Source: Escherichia phage Haito_Bas83
Length of the DNA: 44,876 bases
Reading direction: 5' to 3' (one strand)
Sequence record: PQ850604.1
Positions 4,556-25,988 of this stretch are shown here, one piece after another (positions within the stretch are counted from its first letter, which is position 1; every line of letters starts with the position of its first letter). The notes beneath the pieces were generated by a model, which did no database searches, was not told the DNA's origin, and worked only from the letters and a program-made list of their open reading frames with translations. Position numbers and translations under genes: made by a program.

Positions 4556-4856
4556 ATATGCAGCGATTGGACTGGTTATCGGTCTGGCGGTTGGATTCTG
4601 GCAGGGTGATTCCTACCGCACTGGCGTTGTGGCGAAAGCGGCGCAAGAAGCGCAAGCCGAAGCCCAACGGCAGCAAACTAAGGTTGTAGAGGGGTCGGTG
4701 AAGGCTGAGCAAGCCCGCGACGTGGAATACCGGACTATCACGAAAGAGGTTGTAAAATATGTTACGCGTCCTAACCGTCCTGATTGTAGTTTTGATGCTG
4801 AGCGCGTGCGGATCAAGCAAAGCGCCATCGACGCCGCTAACCGAGTCGGTCTATAG
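4548..4856 (+). CDS. putative i-spanin (Rz-like)
   Basis: GTG start with GGGGG RBS; N-terminal TM helix YAAIGLVIGLAVGFW then charged, helix-prone periplasmic region; a lipoprotein ORF is embedded in the +1 frame. Confidence 0.45.
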   Translation: MIKYAAIGLVIGLAVGFWQGDSYRTGVVAKAAQEAQAEAQRQQTKVVEGSVKAEQARDVEYRTITKEVVKYVTRPNRPDCSFDAERVRIKQSAIDAANRVGL

Positions 4857-4989
4857 ACCGCCTTGCACCTTTGAGAATGCCTCGGCAGATCCAGACGAGG
4901 ACTTGCTTGTTGATGTTAAAAATATGGAATGCGGGGCTAAGCTGAGGGCGCAAGTGCTGGAGTTGCAGAAAATAATTCGGGGGCCGTAA
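4759..4989 (+). CDS. putative o-spanin lipoprotein (Rz1-like)
   Basis: RBS AAGAGG; signal peptide MLRVLTVLIVVLMLSAC with lipobox LSAC; short Cys-containing mature peptide; begins inside the preceding ORF in another frame. Confidence 0.45.
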   Translation: MLRVLTVLIVVLMLSACGSSKAPSTPLTESVYRPPCTFENASADPDEDLLVDVKNMECGAKLRAQVLELQKIIRGP

Positions 4990-5002
4990 TGGCCCCCTTT
5001 TT
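4979..5002. terminator. rho-independent terminator, probably bidirectional
   Basis: GGGGGCC-GTAAT-GGCCCCC followed by TTTTT on plus; the minus-strand gene stops at 5004 and also has a U-rich tract after the hairpin. Confidence 0.6.
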
Positions 5003-5003
5003 G

Positions 5004-5768
5004 TTAGCGCGGAATACCGCAAATCTCGTTTAACGTCTTCACGTCCAGCGCTACTGCCGTTGACTTCGGCTTGTCCGGGTATGGAATGAACTGTTCAACT
5101 TCAGGCCACGCCGCGATCAGCTTCTTGTCAGTATTGTGCATATCCAGCACGCCGGTAACAGTTAGTTTGAACGCGTCATACTTCGCACGCAATTCACGGC
5201 GGGCCTTGTCGTTGCGGTCCAGTCGCTTGCAGAAATCATGATCTGCCGGGTAGTCTGCGCGACCGCGCGGGAGATATATCGGCAGCGCTTTTCCATCTTC
5301 GTCCACTTCGCACACTGACGCGAGCATAATTTCCTCGTACCCCGGTACAATATCGCTGAGGTCCGGCGCGAGCTTATTCATATATTTATCTTCCCAGTAT
5401 CCGCGATGAACGCGGTATTTACGACCGTCGCCGCTCAATGACAAGGTGCGAACGTTACCGCCTGCGTTGATTTCGAAAGTGGCGTCATAAACGCTGCCGA
5501 TACCTTTCGGGCGGTCGGTGTTATAGCTATATGTCGCCTTGTTGGTATATACGCTGACGCCGTACATCTGCGACTGGTCATCGCGGATTGATACAATATA
5601 TGCGCGTAGCTCGGCGAACGTGTGAATGCCTTTTGGCATACAGTGCAACGTGATGTCGTACGCCAGGTCGCGAGAGTCCATCATGATTTTTTTGGCTTCA
5701 GTCGCGATTTCGTGGTCGCGCAGGATGTTAGCCAGAATCTGGTTTTTAATGTCTTTTGTCAGTCTCAT
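5004..5768 (-). CDS. hypothetical protein (moron gene, function unknown)
   Basis: 254-aa intact ORF on the opposite strand inside the head module, flanked by its own promoter and terminator; no motif I can assign. Confidence 0.55.
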   Translation of the reverse strand: MRLTKDIKNQILANILRDHEIATEAKKIMMDSRDLAYDITLHCMPKGIHTFAELRAYIVSIRDDQSQMYGVSVYTNKATYSYNTDRPKGIGSVYDATFEINAGGNVRTLSLSGDGRKYRVHRGYWEDKYMNKLAPDLSDIVPGYEEIMLASVCEVDEDGKALPIYLPRGRADYPADHDFCKRLDRNDKARRELRAKYDAFKLTVTGVLDMHNTDKKLIAAWPEVEQFIPYPDKPKSTAVALDVKTLNEICGIPR

Positions 5769-5807
5769 TTTTGTGTCCTCAAGGTTGGGGCTTCCGCCCC
5801 ATTTGGT

Positions 5808-6122
5808 TTAGTTAAACTTGATGTTTCCACCGGTGGAAGTTAAGCGAGCGCATACAGCTTCAACGGCATCGACGCACATTAAATCGTTAAAGGCTTCTAC
5901 CAGGGCGTTGATGAAAGATGCCGGAACCAGGCCACAAGCCGGATTTTCGAAGGTTGCGGAATTGATTGCAGCCTTTGCGGCTTCAGTAGCGTTCATGCTC
6001 TGGCACAGATTCAGCGCTTCCGCGTTACGCATTGCGTGAAAGGTAAAAGTATTGGCTACGGCAGCTTTATTGAAACGGGTCATTGCTGCGTCTACTGGAG
6101 TTGCTACGGTCATGTTATTCAT
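5808..6122 (-). CDS. hypothetical protein (moron gene)
   Basis: Start chosen at ATG 6122 (MNNMTVATP) with RBS GAAGGAAAAC; an alternative start is at 6137; co-oriented with 5004-5768. Confidence 0.45.
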   Translation of the reverse strand: MNNMTVATPVDAAMTRFNKAAVANTFTFHAMRNAEALNLCQSMNATEAAKAAINSATFENPACGLVPASFINALVEAFNDLMCVDAVEAVCARLTSTGGNIKFN

Positions 6123-6157
6123 TTTGTTTTCCTTCATATCTCTGTTGGTGTGCAACC

Positions 6158-6187
6158 AATATAATGCGACCAATACCCGGATTGCAA
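6158..6187 (-). promoter_or_regulatory. putative sigma70-type promoter for the minus-strand moron
   Basis: TTGCAA, 18-bp spacer containing ATTGGTCGCA, then TATATT on the minus strand; a second ATTGGTTGCA copy follows. Confidence 0.3.
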
Positions 6188-6194
6188 GCGAATT

Positions 6195-6222
6195 TTGCGA
6201 TTATTTTTATCGCTGATAATAT
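6195..6222 (+). promoter_or_regulatory. putative promoter for the scaffold/capsid genes
   Basis: TTGCGA-16 bp-TAATAT; a hairpin GAGCGGG-TGG-CCCGCTC (6238-6254) lies in the leader. Confidence 0.3.
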
Positions 6223-6277
6223 TAGAAGCGTGAAGTCGAGCGGGTGGCCCGCTCTGCCACAATCCCAGGGGGATAGC

Positions 6278-6982
6278 ATGAAACTTACTAAAGCAGAATA
6301 TGACGCGTTGCCGGAAAGCATGAAGGCGCTTTTTGTTGCCGACGGCGATGGGTATAAGTCAACATTTATGTCCGCTGACGAAGTACAGGCGGAAATCAAG
6401 GGTCTGAAAGACAACAACGCAAAGCTGGTGAGCGAGAAGAAAGCAGAAGCTGAACGCCGCGCCGAAGCCGAGCGCCTTGCGAAAGAGAAAGAGGACGCCG
6501 CCGCGCGCAAAAATGGCGACCTCGAAGCGATTGATAAGTCCTGGAAGGATAAGTTTGCAAAACACGAAGCAGACACATCGGGGAAAATCGAATCCTATCG
6601 CAAGCAGATCCACGACCTTACTATCGGCAGCGCGGCCAAAGACCTGGCCTCGAAGCTGTTCGGTAAGAATGCTGGCATCATGCAACGCCACGTAATGGAA
6701 CGCCTCGCGCTGGAAGACGGCGAAGACGGCAGCTTGAAAGTGCGCGTCTTGCAGGATGGCAAACCGTCCGCTCTGACTATGGACGAGCTTGAAAAAGAGT
6801 TCCGTAATAACGCCGATTTTGCATCCGTCCTAGCTGGCACGCCAGCCGGTGGCGCTCCGAGCAAACCGACACAGGTTATCGAAGATGCGAAGTCTAAAAT
6901 CACGATGGGCCATAGCTTCGGTATCACCGACCTGACGAAACAGGCAGGGGATATCATCGCTAAGATGGGCGACGACGAGTAA
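6278..6982 (+). CDS. putative scaffolding protein
   Basis: Start at MKLTKAEY with RBS GGGGGATAGC; charged, helix-rich protein immediately upstream of the major capsid gene. Confidence 0.5.
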   Translation: MKLTKAEYDALPESMKALFVADGDGYKSTFMSADEVQAEIKGLKDNNAKLVSEKKAEAERRAEAERLAKEKEDAAARKNGDLEAIDKSWKDKFAKHEADTSGKIESYRKQIHDLTIGSAAKDLASKLFGKNAGIMQRHVMERLALEDGEDGSLKVRVLQDGKPSALTMDELEKEFRNNADFASVLAGTPAGGAPSKPTQVIEDAKSKITMGHSFGITDLTKQAGDIIAKMGDDE

Positions 6983-21024: not shown

Positions 21025-21987
21025 ATAGATGTTAGGGATGACTAATAGCGGGGTGGGTACGGCAATATTTTTGCCCGGCATTTGGAATTGCTGCCGTGAG
21101 TAGTTGCCAATAACGCGGTTTTTAGCGATGCGCACATTATTACCCGCCATTCGTATCCCGTTCATGCGCACATGGTTATAGCCTCCGTTGTTCTCAATGA
21201 GCGCACCGGTATATGAAAGCTGGATCAGACTATTACCGATGTGCTGGTCGCCGCCACCGATATTAATCGTTCGGTCGTAGACAAACGGCTTGTTTACCGT
21301 CGAGAACGTGACCTGCCCCTGGTTGTTAGTCATGGTGATACCGGTCCCCGGTGAGGGCGGCGTATTGTTGAATATGACCAGGTCCATATCAACGGCAGCG
21401 CCTACGTCGTCAATCCCGCCATAGGACGCATTACGGACAATGATACTTCCGCCATCGAAGCCAACCGATACGTTGCCGTCGTCCCAGCGCGCGAACGGGA
21501 CACCGCCGACTGGTAGCGGCATACTTCCGTTTACATGCACGCGCTGCGCATATCGGCACGTCATTAGCCGTGATACGTTGGATATGGCGGTGAAGTCCGT
21601 TGAGTTAGCCACCAGTAAGCCCGCATTGCGTGACCCCACCGGCAGCACTTCCATAATCACCCCGCCCCATGTTGGAAGCCCGCTGTATGCGTTATAGGCG
21701 TCCTCACCGCGCAAGGTGATTCCGCCATCCCCGTTACGTTGTATCGACGTCACATAAAACGGGTCTGGCAAGACCAGGGTCTGGTCGAATACCTCAATCA
21801 CTTCAACCGGATTAGTTAGGGCAACGACCAGTTCGGACCCTGGTGTCAGCGGTGTGTTAATGGACAGCGTCTTGTCAGACTGACAGCGCTGATTAAAGGT
21901 AGTGCAAAACGACGGAGCGCGAAGGCCCGCGGTTATCTCCATGACAGGTCTACCGTCGTTGTAGTCGATTAATATTCCGGCACCCAT
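21022..21987 (-). CDS. putative receptor-binding protein (opposite strand, downstream of J)
   Basis: 321 aa from ATG 21987 (RBS GGGAGTGG); Gly/Asn-rich with repetitive strand-like segments; translationally coupled to the upstream lipoprotein gene; location matches separately encoded RBP loci of siphoviruses. Confidence 0.35.
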   Translation of the reverse strand: MGAGILIDYNDGRPVMEITAGLRAPSFCTTFNQRCQSDKTLSINTPLTPGSELVVALTNPVEVIEVFDQTLVLPDPFYVTSIQRNGDGGITLRGEDAYNAYSGLPTWGGVIMEVLPVGSRNAGLLVANSTDFTAISNVSRLMTCRYAQRVHVNGSMPLPVGGVPFARWDDGNVSVGFDGGSIIVRNASYGGIDDVGAAVDMDLVIFNNTPPSPGTGITMTNNQGQVTFSTVNKPFVYDRTINIGGGDQHIGNSLIQLSYTGALIENNGGYNHVRMNGIRMAGNNVRIAKNRVIGNYSRQQFQMPGKNIAVPTPLLVIPNIY

Positions 21988-21989
21988 TA

Positions 21990-22211
21990 TTACCACTCCC
22001 GTGATTTAACTGATACAGTACCGGAAAAATTGCCGTCGCTATCGGCAGACAGGCCAGTGAAGCGCATGTCAACATCTCCGGCAGGGACTTTTTGCCCGTC
22101 AACGTAACGCAACATGCAGCTTCCGTAAGCCACCGTAATGCAATCACCGTTGTTGCGTTCTACAGCACAACCGGACAAAAGGACCGCACAAATCATAATT
22201 AAAGTTTTCAT
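21990..22211 (-). CDS. small lipoprotein, superinfection-exclusion candidate (Cor/Llp-like)
   Basis: Start at 22211 with RBS AGGAG; signal peptide MKTLIMICAVLLSGC with lipobox LSGC; 73 aa; adjacent to receptor-binding genes. Confidence 0.5.
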   Translation of the reverse strand: MKTLIMICAVLLSGCAVERNNGDCITVAYGSCMLRYVDGQKVPAGDVDMRFTGLSADSDGNFSGTVSVKSREW

Positions 22212-22291
22212 GTTATCATCTCCTATATTTGGTTGAGTTTTAGTATTACACCGCTCAACCAAGAATGCAACCAATTTATGAGGATTCAGCT

Positions 22292-25767: not shown

Positions 25768-25988
25768 TTTAAGCTCTCAATAAGGGTGTAACGGGCGCTT
25801 CGCGCAGTAAAGGAGTTGCACACGAAATGGCAACGCTGAGTCATGACAAGCCAACCGGTGAGGTCAAGGCCCAGGATGTATTCGGGGCGAGACGCGCGCA
25901 CCACACGATTGCGTCGCGGATCAATACCGTAGTCTTTTTGCATTTGGTCTACTACCGCGGGGTCGCGGTCAACGATTAAGATATTCAA
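25764..25988 (-). CDS. hypothetical protein
   Basis: 74-aa ORF whose start and stop overlap the neighbouring genes. Confidence 0.35.
   Translation of the reverse strand: MNILIVDRDPAVVDQMQKDYGIDPRRNRVVRASRPEYILGLDLTGWLVMTQRCHFVCNSFTARSARYTLIESLK

Follow-up and report, generated by a model that had tools for sequence, protein, structure and literature searches.

The 44,876-nt genome of Escherichia phage Haito_Bas83 (PQ850604.1), referred to below as the window, carries at positions 5,004 to 6,187 a minus-strand unit of two genes directed against the surrounding late genes. The promoter-distal gene, nmad5, encodes a member of the Pfam family Nmad5, and the promoter-proximal gene, here termed open reading frame (ORF) B, encodes a small acidic protein. 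The interpretation that we favor, with reasonable though not high confidence, is that the locus is an autonomous accessory transcription unit with a plug-in slot; nmad5 would be the usual resident of the unit, ORF B a cargo independent of it, and Nmad5 a nonenzymatic binding protein. The unit would be read in the order of conserved host-type promoter, variable cargo position, boundary hairpin, nmad5, and bidirectional terminator, and it would lie inside the late region, dividing it into two halves (Table 1). Taken overall, the locus is not a new kind of system.

Over 2.2 kb around the locus, the window shares 99.8% identity with Escherichia phage RuthEpting_Bas85 (PQ850624.1), and the same region matches 158 phage records, nearly all of them from Dhillonvirus; the window is a Dhillonvirus genome. 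In the Bas85 annotation, both minus-strand genes are listed as hypothetical and are flanked by head morphogenesis and spanin genes on one side and by the scaffold gene on the other, and no RNA polymerase gene is annotated. Both ORFs are intact in Haito_Bas83, with that of ORF B extending from 5808 to 6173 as its longest frame. An initial annotation, made from the letters alone, had described a self-contained unit that opposes the late-gene flow and consists of a promoter-like element, two intact ORFs (254 and ~104 amino acids [aa]), and a bidirectional terminator shared with the convergent late genes. This anatomy was borne out in each of its parts.

The sigma-70-like promoter is credible because of its conservation and not by its consensus match alone. 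Its TTGC and TATATTGGTTGCACACCAAC elements are invariant or almost so in 17 Dhillonvirus genomes, and the 141-nt intergenic region in which it lies is 93.5% identical among them, compared to a synonymous divergence (dS) of ~0.54 in nmad5. The -10 box and the downstream sequence GGTTGCACACCAAC are kept throughout the genus, including in phages that have no cargo gene and in HK578, which has no nmad5. At the other end of the unit, the terminator hairpin (4979-4997) has predicted folding energies of -18.3 and -17.3 kcal/mol on the two strands (z-scores, -3.0 and -3.7) and stands directly after both convergent stop codons (o-spanin, 4989; nmad5, 5004-5006). The same element is annotated in HK578. 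It is predicted to end the transcripts of both the upstream late genes and nmad5. Transcription of the unit would be carried out by the host RNA polymerase, with the bidirectional terminator insulating it from the late genes.

The variable cargo position lies between the promoter and nmad5. Compared with empty-slot Dhillonviruses (including PaulFeyerabend, SM_S22, and Ioannina), a minus-strand stretch of 363 bp (5781..6143), made up of a leader with an AAGGA Shine-Dalgarno sequence, ORF B, and a hairpin, takes the place of the 3 nt "AAC." The insert is bounded by the conserved promoter and by the conserved nmad5 Shine-Dalgarno sequence GAGGA, and other Dhillonviruses hold different genes at this position (Table 1). 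The flanks of these cargo genes are shared: the 5' leader ...CACCAAC-AGAGATATGAAGGAAAAC...ATG is common to ORF B and the 135-aa gene, while the 3' junction TTTAACTAAACCAAAYGGGGCGRAAGCCCC...GAGGACACAAAAATG is common to ORF B, the 135-aa gene, and the beta-clamp-like gene. The GC-rich tetraloop hairpin, likewise common to three different cargo genes, has a predicted energy of -12.9 kcal/mol (z-score, -2.4) and no U-tract on the transcribed strand; it would mark the cassette boundary and may also act as an RNA-stabilizing or attenuating element. In one Dhillonvirus locus (L014), the last codons of ORF B persist behind the clamp-like gene, which suggests that cargo is replaced by recombination within the shared flanks. 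Exchange would take place between the common leader and the common hairpin junction, with nmad5 as the ancestral resident. Homologues of the 135-aa cargo (51 to 57% identity) were found in Serratia and Erwinia phages. In CHD5UKE2, the clamp-like gene is located downstream of nmad5. A conserved pairing of the clamp-like gene with Nmad5 was considered and rejected, as the two adjoin in a subset of Dhillonviruses only and were not neighbors at any other locus. Both the ORF B and the 53-aa slot states are present, ~49 kb apart, in the 88.6-kb record of Escherichia phage P-GXEC-L2P5 (PQ843332.1), which is twice the usual genome length and probably represents two Dhillonvirus genomes joined in one record.

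The moron concept was defined for lambdoid phages by Hendrix and colleagues, and the initial annotation had applied the term to the entire unit. It fits ORF B, which is contained in a 363-bp insertion, has a GC content of 48.6% against 54.4% for the genome, and is lacking in ~60% of relatives. The term suits the locus as a whole in spirit but does not strictly extend to the entire unit, and the idea that the promoter and terminator arrived as part of an inserted cassette has to be dropped: both elements were present in every Dhillonvirus examined. On sequence grounds, it is the 363-bp stretch that would be the moron proper. Like lambdoid morons, ORF B is inserted between otherwise adjacent elements, deviates in GC content, is bounded by a stem-loop, and occurs in unrelated phages. 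In contrast to lambdoid morons, the promoter and terminator are here resident in the genus and lie outside the insert; ORF B itself would use the resident promoter and is followed by a hairpin that lacks a U-tract. (Upstream of a homologue on a phage contig, L003, there are a TATAAT box and a hairpin.) Moreover, the Dhillonvirus site accepts alternative cargoes with shared flanks and thus resembles a fixed exchange slot more than the scene of a one-off insertion. To our knowledge, no multistate cargo slot whose contents share their flanks has been reported before.

The independence of the two genes is evident from their distribution. Full-length nmad5 was found in ~147 phage records, compared to 60 (~40% of Dhillonviruses) for ORF B at a threshold of at least 80% identity. 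Among 17 Dhillonvirus loci, 6 contain ORF B and 11 have nmad5 without it, and ORF B was absent from all of the ~35 non-Dhillonvirus Nmad5 loci examined. Conversely, ORF B homologues (52 to 73% identity) occur with no nmad5 nearby in Pantoea Dibbivirus AAM37, in Ackermannviridae (ZQ1, SW16-7, and others), and on the 47-kb contig L003. In each of these three settings, a GC-rich tetraloop hairpin follows the gene, and the junction in L003 resembles that of the Dhillonviruses. ORF B would therefore be best pictured as a horizontally mobile small gene that travels with its trailing hairpin and acts independently of nmad5. These observations bear directly on the proposal, put forward initially, that the two genes form a single cooperating system, whether a toxin with its modulator or a two-component anti-defense or exclusion module. 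Adjacency, common orientation, and the sharing of one promoter and one terminator are what such a system would look like, and the failure of nmad5 to be cloned, apparently through toxicity, makes a neutralizing partner conceivable. However, obligate co-occurrence was not observed in either direction, and unrelated genes take the position of ORF B in other phages. A two-gene system is largely refuted by this distribution, and we consider it very improbable.

ORF B matches phrog_24635, a family of unannotated function, over its full length (E value, 8e-64), and nothing significant was found for it in Pfam, NCBIfam, PADLOC, or PDB sequences. Its predicted fold is helical, and a fold search returned no match. 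The designation "undescribed" stands for the 104-aa protein in the sense that its PHROG is uncharacterized. To that family the present analysis adds the predicted helical fold, the invariant residues (H29, C63, D85, and C91, together with an NPACGLVP motif that is invariant or nearly so), and the distribution, which comprises a subset of Dhillonviruses, Dibbivirus, Ackermannviridae, and a contig with a gene for an adenylosuccinate-synthase-family protein. With 18 clusters among 5.8 billion proteins, the family is small. ORF B itself is under purifying selection, with a median ratio of nonsynonymous to synonymous divergence (dN/dS) of 0.10 in five genomes. The true start is most likely the ATG at 6122, which gives 104 aa; it is preceded by the AAGGA Shine-Dalgarno sequence 7 nt upstream, and all 17 homologues start there. 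The 109-aa GenBank call, which begins at 6137, is probably overextended; in L017, a locus with the 135-aa gene behind the same leader, the upstream ATG does not share the reading frame of the cargo. A function against the defense system Tmn was ruled out, as SM_A2 carries ORF B and is nevertheless Tmn sensitive. ORF B is probably another host interaction factor, as had been proposed for the locus as a whole.

The closest non-Dhillonvirus homologue of ORF B (73% identity) is located on the phage contig L003 (1344-3287, 6001-6309), which in addition carries genes for an adenylosuccinate-synthase-family protein and an HD/YfbR-like phosphohydrolase. A set of this kind is typical of 2-aminoadenine (Z-base) genomes. 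The gene next to the homologue encodes a hydrophobic, signal-peptide-like N-terminal stretch, as judged by eye. A conserved partner of ORF B was sought and rejected: the 183- and 184-aa downstream genes of ZQ1 and L003 are unrelated to each other.

The initial annotation had assigned no motif to either protein. For the 254-aa protein this was mistaken, and the gene is not an undescribed one. A hidden Markov model search matched residues 1 to 253 to positions 1 to 206 of the 206-position Pfam model Nmad5, "nucleotide modification associated domain 5" (E value, 2e-56; 191.7 bits against a cutoff of 27). The family is widespread in phages, with 976 cluster representatives at an E value of 0.001 or below. 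Its signature is complete in the window protein (N-terminal R-L-T; C-terminal T..KL...WPE and LN...G.P). In an alignment of 102 diverse members, the best-conserved positions were R2, L3, G104, G113, T213, L217, W221, P222, E223, P229, L246, N247, G251, and P253, with W221, P222, L246, and N247 conserved in 97 to 99% and K216 in 65% of sequences. An AlphaFold2 model was obtained with a pLDDT of 89.6, and DSSP assigned isolated bridge residues at positions 2 and 213 of this model, which suggests that the conserved N-terminus packs against the T213-E223 motif. A PDB profile search with the Nmad5 alignment gave nothing below an E value of 0.2, and neither Nmad5 nor ORF B matched a family among the PADLOC-DB defense models at an E value of 1 or below.

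Previous research on two other Dhillonviruses, SMA8 and SMS22, has shown that selection by Tmn yields the same nmad5 substitution twice, K216E (K296E in SMS22 numbering) (Yamashita et al., Commun Biol 2025, PMC11846954). Reverting the change restored Tmn sensitivity and introducing it conferred resistance, and K216E is therefore sufficient for escape (PMC11846954). In contrast, a phage with nmad5 deleted was viable and still Tmn sensitive, and attempts to clone nmad5 failed, apparently through toxicity (PMC11846954). The two numberings differ because the SM_S22 coding sequence (PP627283.1, 5005-6009) is annotated with 80 extra residues. This 334-aa annotation contains the same 254-aa ORF, and its additional N-terminal residues are encoded by the promoter region and by antisense sequence of the scaffold gene; it is probably an artifact of N-terminal overextension. 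In SMA8 and SMS22, nmad5 is the same gene and occupies the equivalent site beside the scaffold and capsid genes, and the 254-aa products are 87 to 92% identical to that of Haito_Bas83, which likewise has Lys216. Two differences should be kept in mind: ORF B stands between the promoter and nmad5 in Haito_Bas83, whereas the slot of SM_S22 is empty, and the Tmn experiments concern SMA8 and SMS22, while nmad5 of Haito_Bas83 is known from its sequence. The suspected link of the locus to host interaction or defense thus holds for nmad5 through the K216E escape. Other published immune triggers of Dhillonviruses, namely Ksap1 (KpAvs2), the portal protein (RAZR), SSB (Retron-Eco8), and DNA polymerase (Borvo), were considered for this locus and map elsewhere.

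Selection on nmad5 was estimated from 14 genomes, in all of which the gene is intact. The median dN/dS was 0.14, with values of 0.07 for the N-terminus and 0.03 for the C-terminus, compared to 0.35 for the variable residues 38 to 75. The GC content of the gene is 51.9%, against 54.4% for the genome. Elsewhere in the genus, nmad5 has been lost. The type species HK578 retains the promoter, a cargo gene, the hairpin, the Shine-Dalgarno sequence, and only the first five nmad5 codons. In this genome (locus L055; NC_019724.1, ~5020-5080), a deletion scar fuses the Shine-Dalgarno sequence and ATGAGACTGACGAAA (MRLTK) to the bidirectional terminator, and no nmad5 was found elsewhere in the portion searched (3300-43741). 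In Teewinot, only residues 1 to 54 of Nmad5 remain, and C-terminally truncated variants occur in metagenomic sequences (P0041 and P0042). An 8.8-kb Logan contig (P0053) encodes an 87-aa in-frame fusion of ORF B residues 1 to 46 with Nmad5 residues 214 to 254, which looks like a natural deletion that joined the two genes at an NAT/NTD microhomology; this is a single contig, and an assembly artifact is possible. Purifying selection in most lineages combined with recurrent loss points to a conditionally useful accessory gene, and it marks nmad5 as a host interaction gene that is dispensable in the laboratory and repeatedly lost in nature.

The same evidence disposes of the suggestion that the two proteins are conserved head assembly or structural proteins encoded on the other strand, for which the location between the head morphogenesis and scaffold genes might speak. 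The nmad5 deletion phage is viable, HK578 and Teewinot have lost the gene naturally, ORF B is patchy and missing from most relatives, homologues lie in early or replication regions of other phages, and no structural-protein match was obtained in Pfam, PHROGs, or fold searches. For practical purposes this explanation is refuted, and the locus is accessory and nonstructural, as initially proposed. More serious is the possibility that Nmad5 is an enzyme or an essential accessory factor of phage DNA base modification and that Tmn senses the modified DNA, which is the reading favored by the authors of the Tmn study (PMC11846954). It draws support from Yuavirus phages SN1 and LKO4, in which the Nmad5 gene lies among modification enzymes. 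The Yuavirus and M6-like proteins (SN1_019 and LKO4 gp18) belong to the same Pfam family, with 38% identity to the window protein over the last 80 residues (E value, 3e-11), but they are shorter (~186 aa), lack the beta-domain insertions of the Dhillonvirus protein, and are embedded among aGPT-Pplase, kinase, radical-SAM, pyridoxal phosphate (PLP), and thymidylate-synthase-like genes, none of which is present in Haito_Bas83. When eight proteins of the LKO4 hypermodification region were searched against the window with tblastn, only the Nmad5 homologue matched, all others giving E values above 0.2; the thymidine hypermodification set (5-hydroxymethyl-2'-deoxyuridine [5-hmdU] DNA kinase, aGPT-Pplase, and dUMP hydroxymethylase) was not found in the window in this search with the LKO4 genes. 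Likewise, none of these modification genes is annotated in Bas85. In phage M6, the steps from 5-hmdU DNA to 5-(2-aminoethyl)-2'-deoxyuridine (5-NedU) have been assigned to gp54, gp51, gp53, and gp52, none of which is Nmad5 (PMC8989533). Among the family contexts examined, only Yuavirus places Nmad5 beside modification genes, and most contexts are phages without such a pathway. Furthermore, deletion of nmad5 leaves Tmn sensitivity unchanged, no enzyme fold was matched by the Nmad5 model in the fold search, and Dhillonviruses have been described as moderately sensitive to restriction-modification systems. A role of Nmad5 in making modified bases is therefore disfavored, and we regard this explanation as unlikely. 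The family name itself reportedly goes back to a prediction by Iyer et al. in 2013 and is based on an association with nucleotide modification genes in genomes, which is absent from Haito_Bas83.

The contexts in which Nmad5 is found in other phages raise the alternative that it is a replication or recombination accessory factor, such as a modulator of an annealing protein-exonuclease pair or an inhibitor of a host nuclease, with only an indirect link to Tmn. In lambdoid phages, members of the family are located in the pL early operon, upstream of Erf/SSB/exonuclease or RecT/YqaJ genes; in Guernseyvirinae-like phages, they stand at the head of an early operon, upstream of a DUF2800 exonuclease, a gp2.5-like protein, and PolA; and in Vibrio phages, they adjoin replication protein O or sit among small early genes. 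The signature is also conserved across phages of hosts from E. coli to Pseudomonas and Vibrio, suggesting a conserved target. Nevertheless, the neighborhood of an early operon says little about function, the Dhillonvirus nmad5 lies far from the replication and recombination module, and in the fold search Nmad5 resembled neither Gam nor Abc nor any other known nuclease inhibitor. This alternative appears to us improbable, to about the same degree as the modification hypothesis.

Several points weigh against the accessory-unit interpretation as well. In SN1 and LKO4, the Nmad5 gene directly adjoins those for aGPT-Pplase1, a kinase, a radical-SAM enzyme, and a PLP enzyme. Nmad5 could adopt a new enzyme fold despite the absence of fold matches, and the conserved polar residues R2, T4, N14, T213, K216, E223, and N247 could form an active site. 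The partner that Nmad5 is proposed to bind is hypothetical, and the conserved patch is reconstructed from sequence conservation and secondary-structure calls on a model. As for the unit itself, the consensus match of the promoter is no better than chance (one site, against 2.0 +/- 1.1 in shuffles), and promoter activity, timing, and terminator efficiency are predictions. On the other side, the conserved residues of Nmad5 are mostly W, P, L, G, N, and T, which would suit an interaction surface better than a catalytic site, and Nmad5 is probably nonenzymatic.

If the locus is indeed an accessory unit, Nmad5 would bind a conserved host or phage target through a surface formed by R2-L3-T4, the turn T213..K216-L217..W221-P222-E223, and the C-terminal helix L246-N247..G251. 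Binding to such a target would account for the toxicity in E. coli, and binding through this patch would explain how reversal of charge by K216E, and not deletion of the gene, defeats Tmn. We take K216E to be a specific gain or change of function in this surface because deletion does not phenocopy it and because the same change arose twice. A more far-reaching version would see the locus as a dedicated cassette exchange site of Dhillonviruses, at which small host interaction genes are swapped between a fixed promoter and leader and a tetraloop hairpin junction, ORF B as a new anti-defense or host takeover protein that spreads with its hairpin between phage families that are unrelated, and Nmad5 as a nonenzymatic effector with K216 in the surface, formed by its conserved N- and C-termini, that binds a conserved cellular target; this we put forward tentatively, as rather less probable than not. 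The only experimental handle on the Nmad5 family is an unexplained gain-of-function escape from Tmn, and the family name implies DNA modification. With the escape residue in the signature patch, no modification pathway, and mostly early-operon contexts in the family, follow-up of the Tmn phenotype would be directed toward binding partners and not toward modified bases. The slot, for its part, may serve as a compact natural catalogue of candidate host interaction genes (ORF B, the 135-aa gene, the beta-clamp-like gene, and the 53-aa gene), and their common context suits side-by-side tests and phage engineering.

Table 1. Features of the nmad5 unit in Haito_Bas83, in the order of transcription, and contents of the cargo slot in Dhillonviruses
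Feature	Position	Strand	Description
Sigma-70-like promoter (predicted), TTGCAA-18-TATATT	6158..6187	-	9 of 12 consensus match plus conservation
ORF B	5808..6122	-	104 aa, acidic (pI 5.1), predicted helical; phrog_24635; cargo gene in this phage
GC-rich tetraloop hairpin, UGGGGC-GGAA-GCCCCA	5786..5801	-	3' boundary of cargo cassette (predicted); no U-tract
nmad5 Shine-Dalgarno sequence, GAGGA	5776..5780	-	7 nt 5' of ATG; kept with or without a preceding cargo gene
nmad5	5004..5768	-	254 aa; Pfam Nmad5 (PF18757); phrog_1965
Lys216 codon, AAG	5121..5123	-	In signature T213-x2-K216-L217-x3-W221-P222-E223
Bidirectional intrinsic terminator (predicted)	4979..5002	both	Stem GGGGGCC/GGCCCCC; U-tract on +, GAAUUAUUUU on -
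Slot content: nothing			7 loci
Slot content: 135-aa gene			No family match; L017, L021, HK578; 7 E. coli phage records
Slot content: 170-aa beta-clamp-domain-like gene			phrog_3007; L014
Slot content: 53-aa gene			L019; 4 records

Further signals surround the promoter of the unit. A direct repeat, ATTGGTCGCA and ATTGGTTGCA (6151-6174, minus strand), flanks and overlaps the -10 box and is conserved throughout the genus; it may serve a regulator as its operator. On the plus strand, the scaffold and late genes have a candidate divergent promoter (6195-6222; TTGCGA-16-TGaTAATAT, with an extended -10 element), placed back to back with that of the unit so that 7 bp separate the two -35 boxes. With a score of 8 of 12, it fell below the reporting level of the scan, and its region is invariant in 17 genomes. 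Farther downstream, in the presumed 5' leader of the scaffold gene, a conserved stem-loop, GAGCGGG-UGG-CCCGCUC (6238-6254, plus strand), has a predicted energy of -15.8 kcal/mol. Five genomes show a compensatory G-C to A-U change at the base of its stem, and the change in other genomes stays paired (G.U) only in plus-strand RNA; both changes suggest a functional RNA element of the late transcript. A scan of 4700-6400 against Rfam gave no family at its gathering score.

Elsewhere in the window, two other positions are of note. A second minus-strand gene pair is located inside the tail module (21029-22218); its first gene is annotated in Bas85 as a membrane protein or moron, and the HK578 counterparts of the pair are annotated as similar to rtp44 of phage RTP and as a putative lipoprotein. 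The pair may be a receptor-blocking or superinfection exclusion pair. In Dhillonvirus SECphi18, ksap1, the trigger of KpAvs2, has been reported between methyltransferase and phosphatase genes (PMC11564622). A small minus-strand ORF of Haito_Bas83 (25770-25949), flanked by genes for a DNA methyltransferase and for a product annotated as a polynucleotide kinase, corresponds to ksap1 in position.

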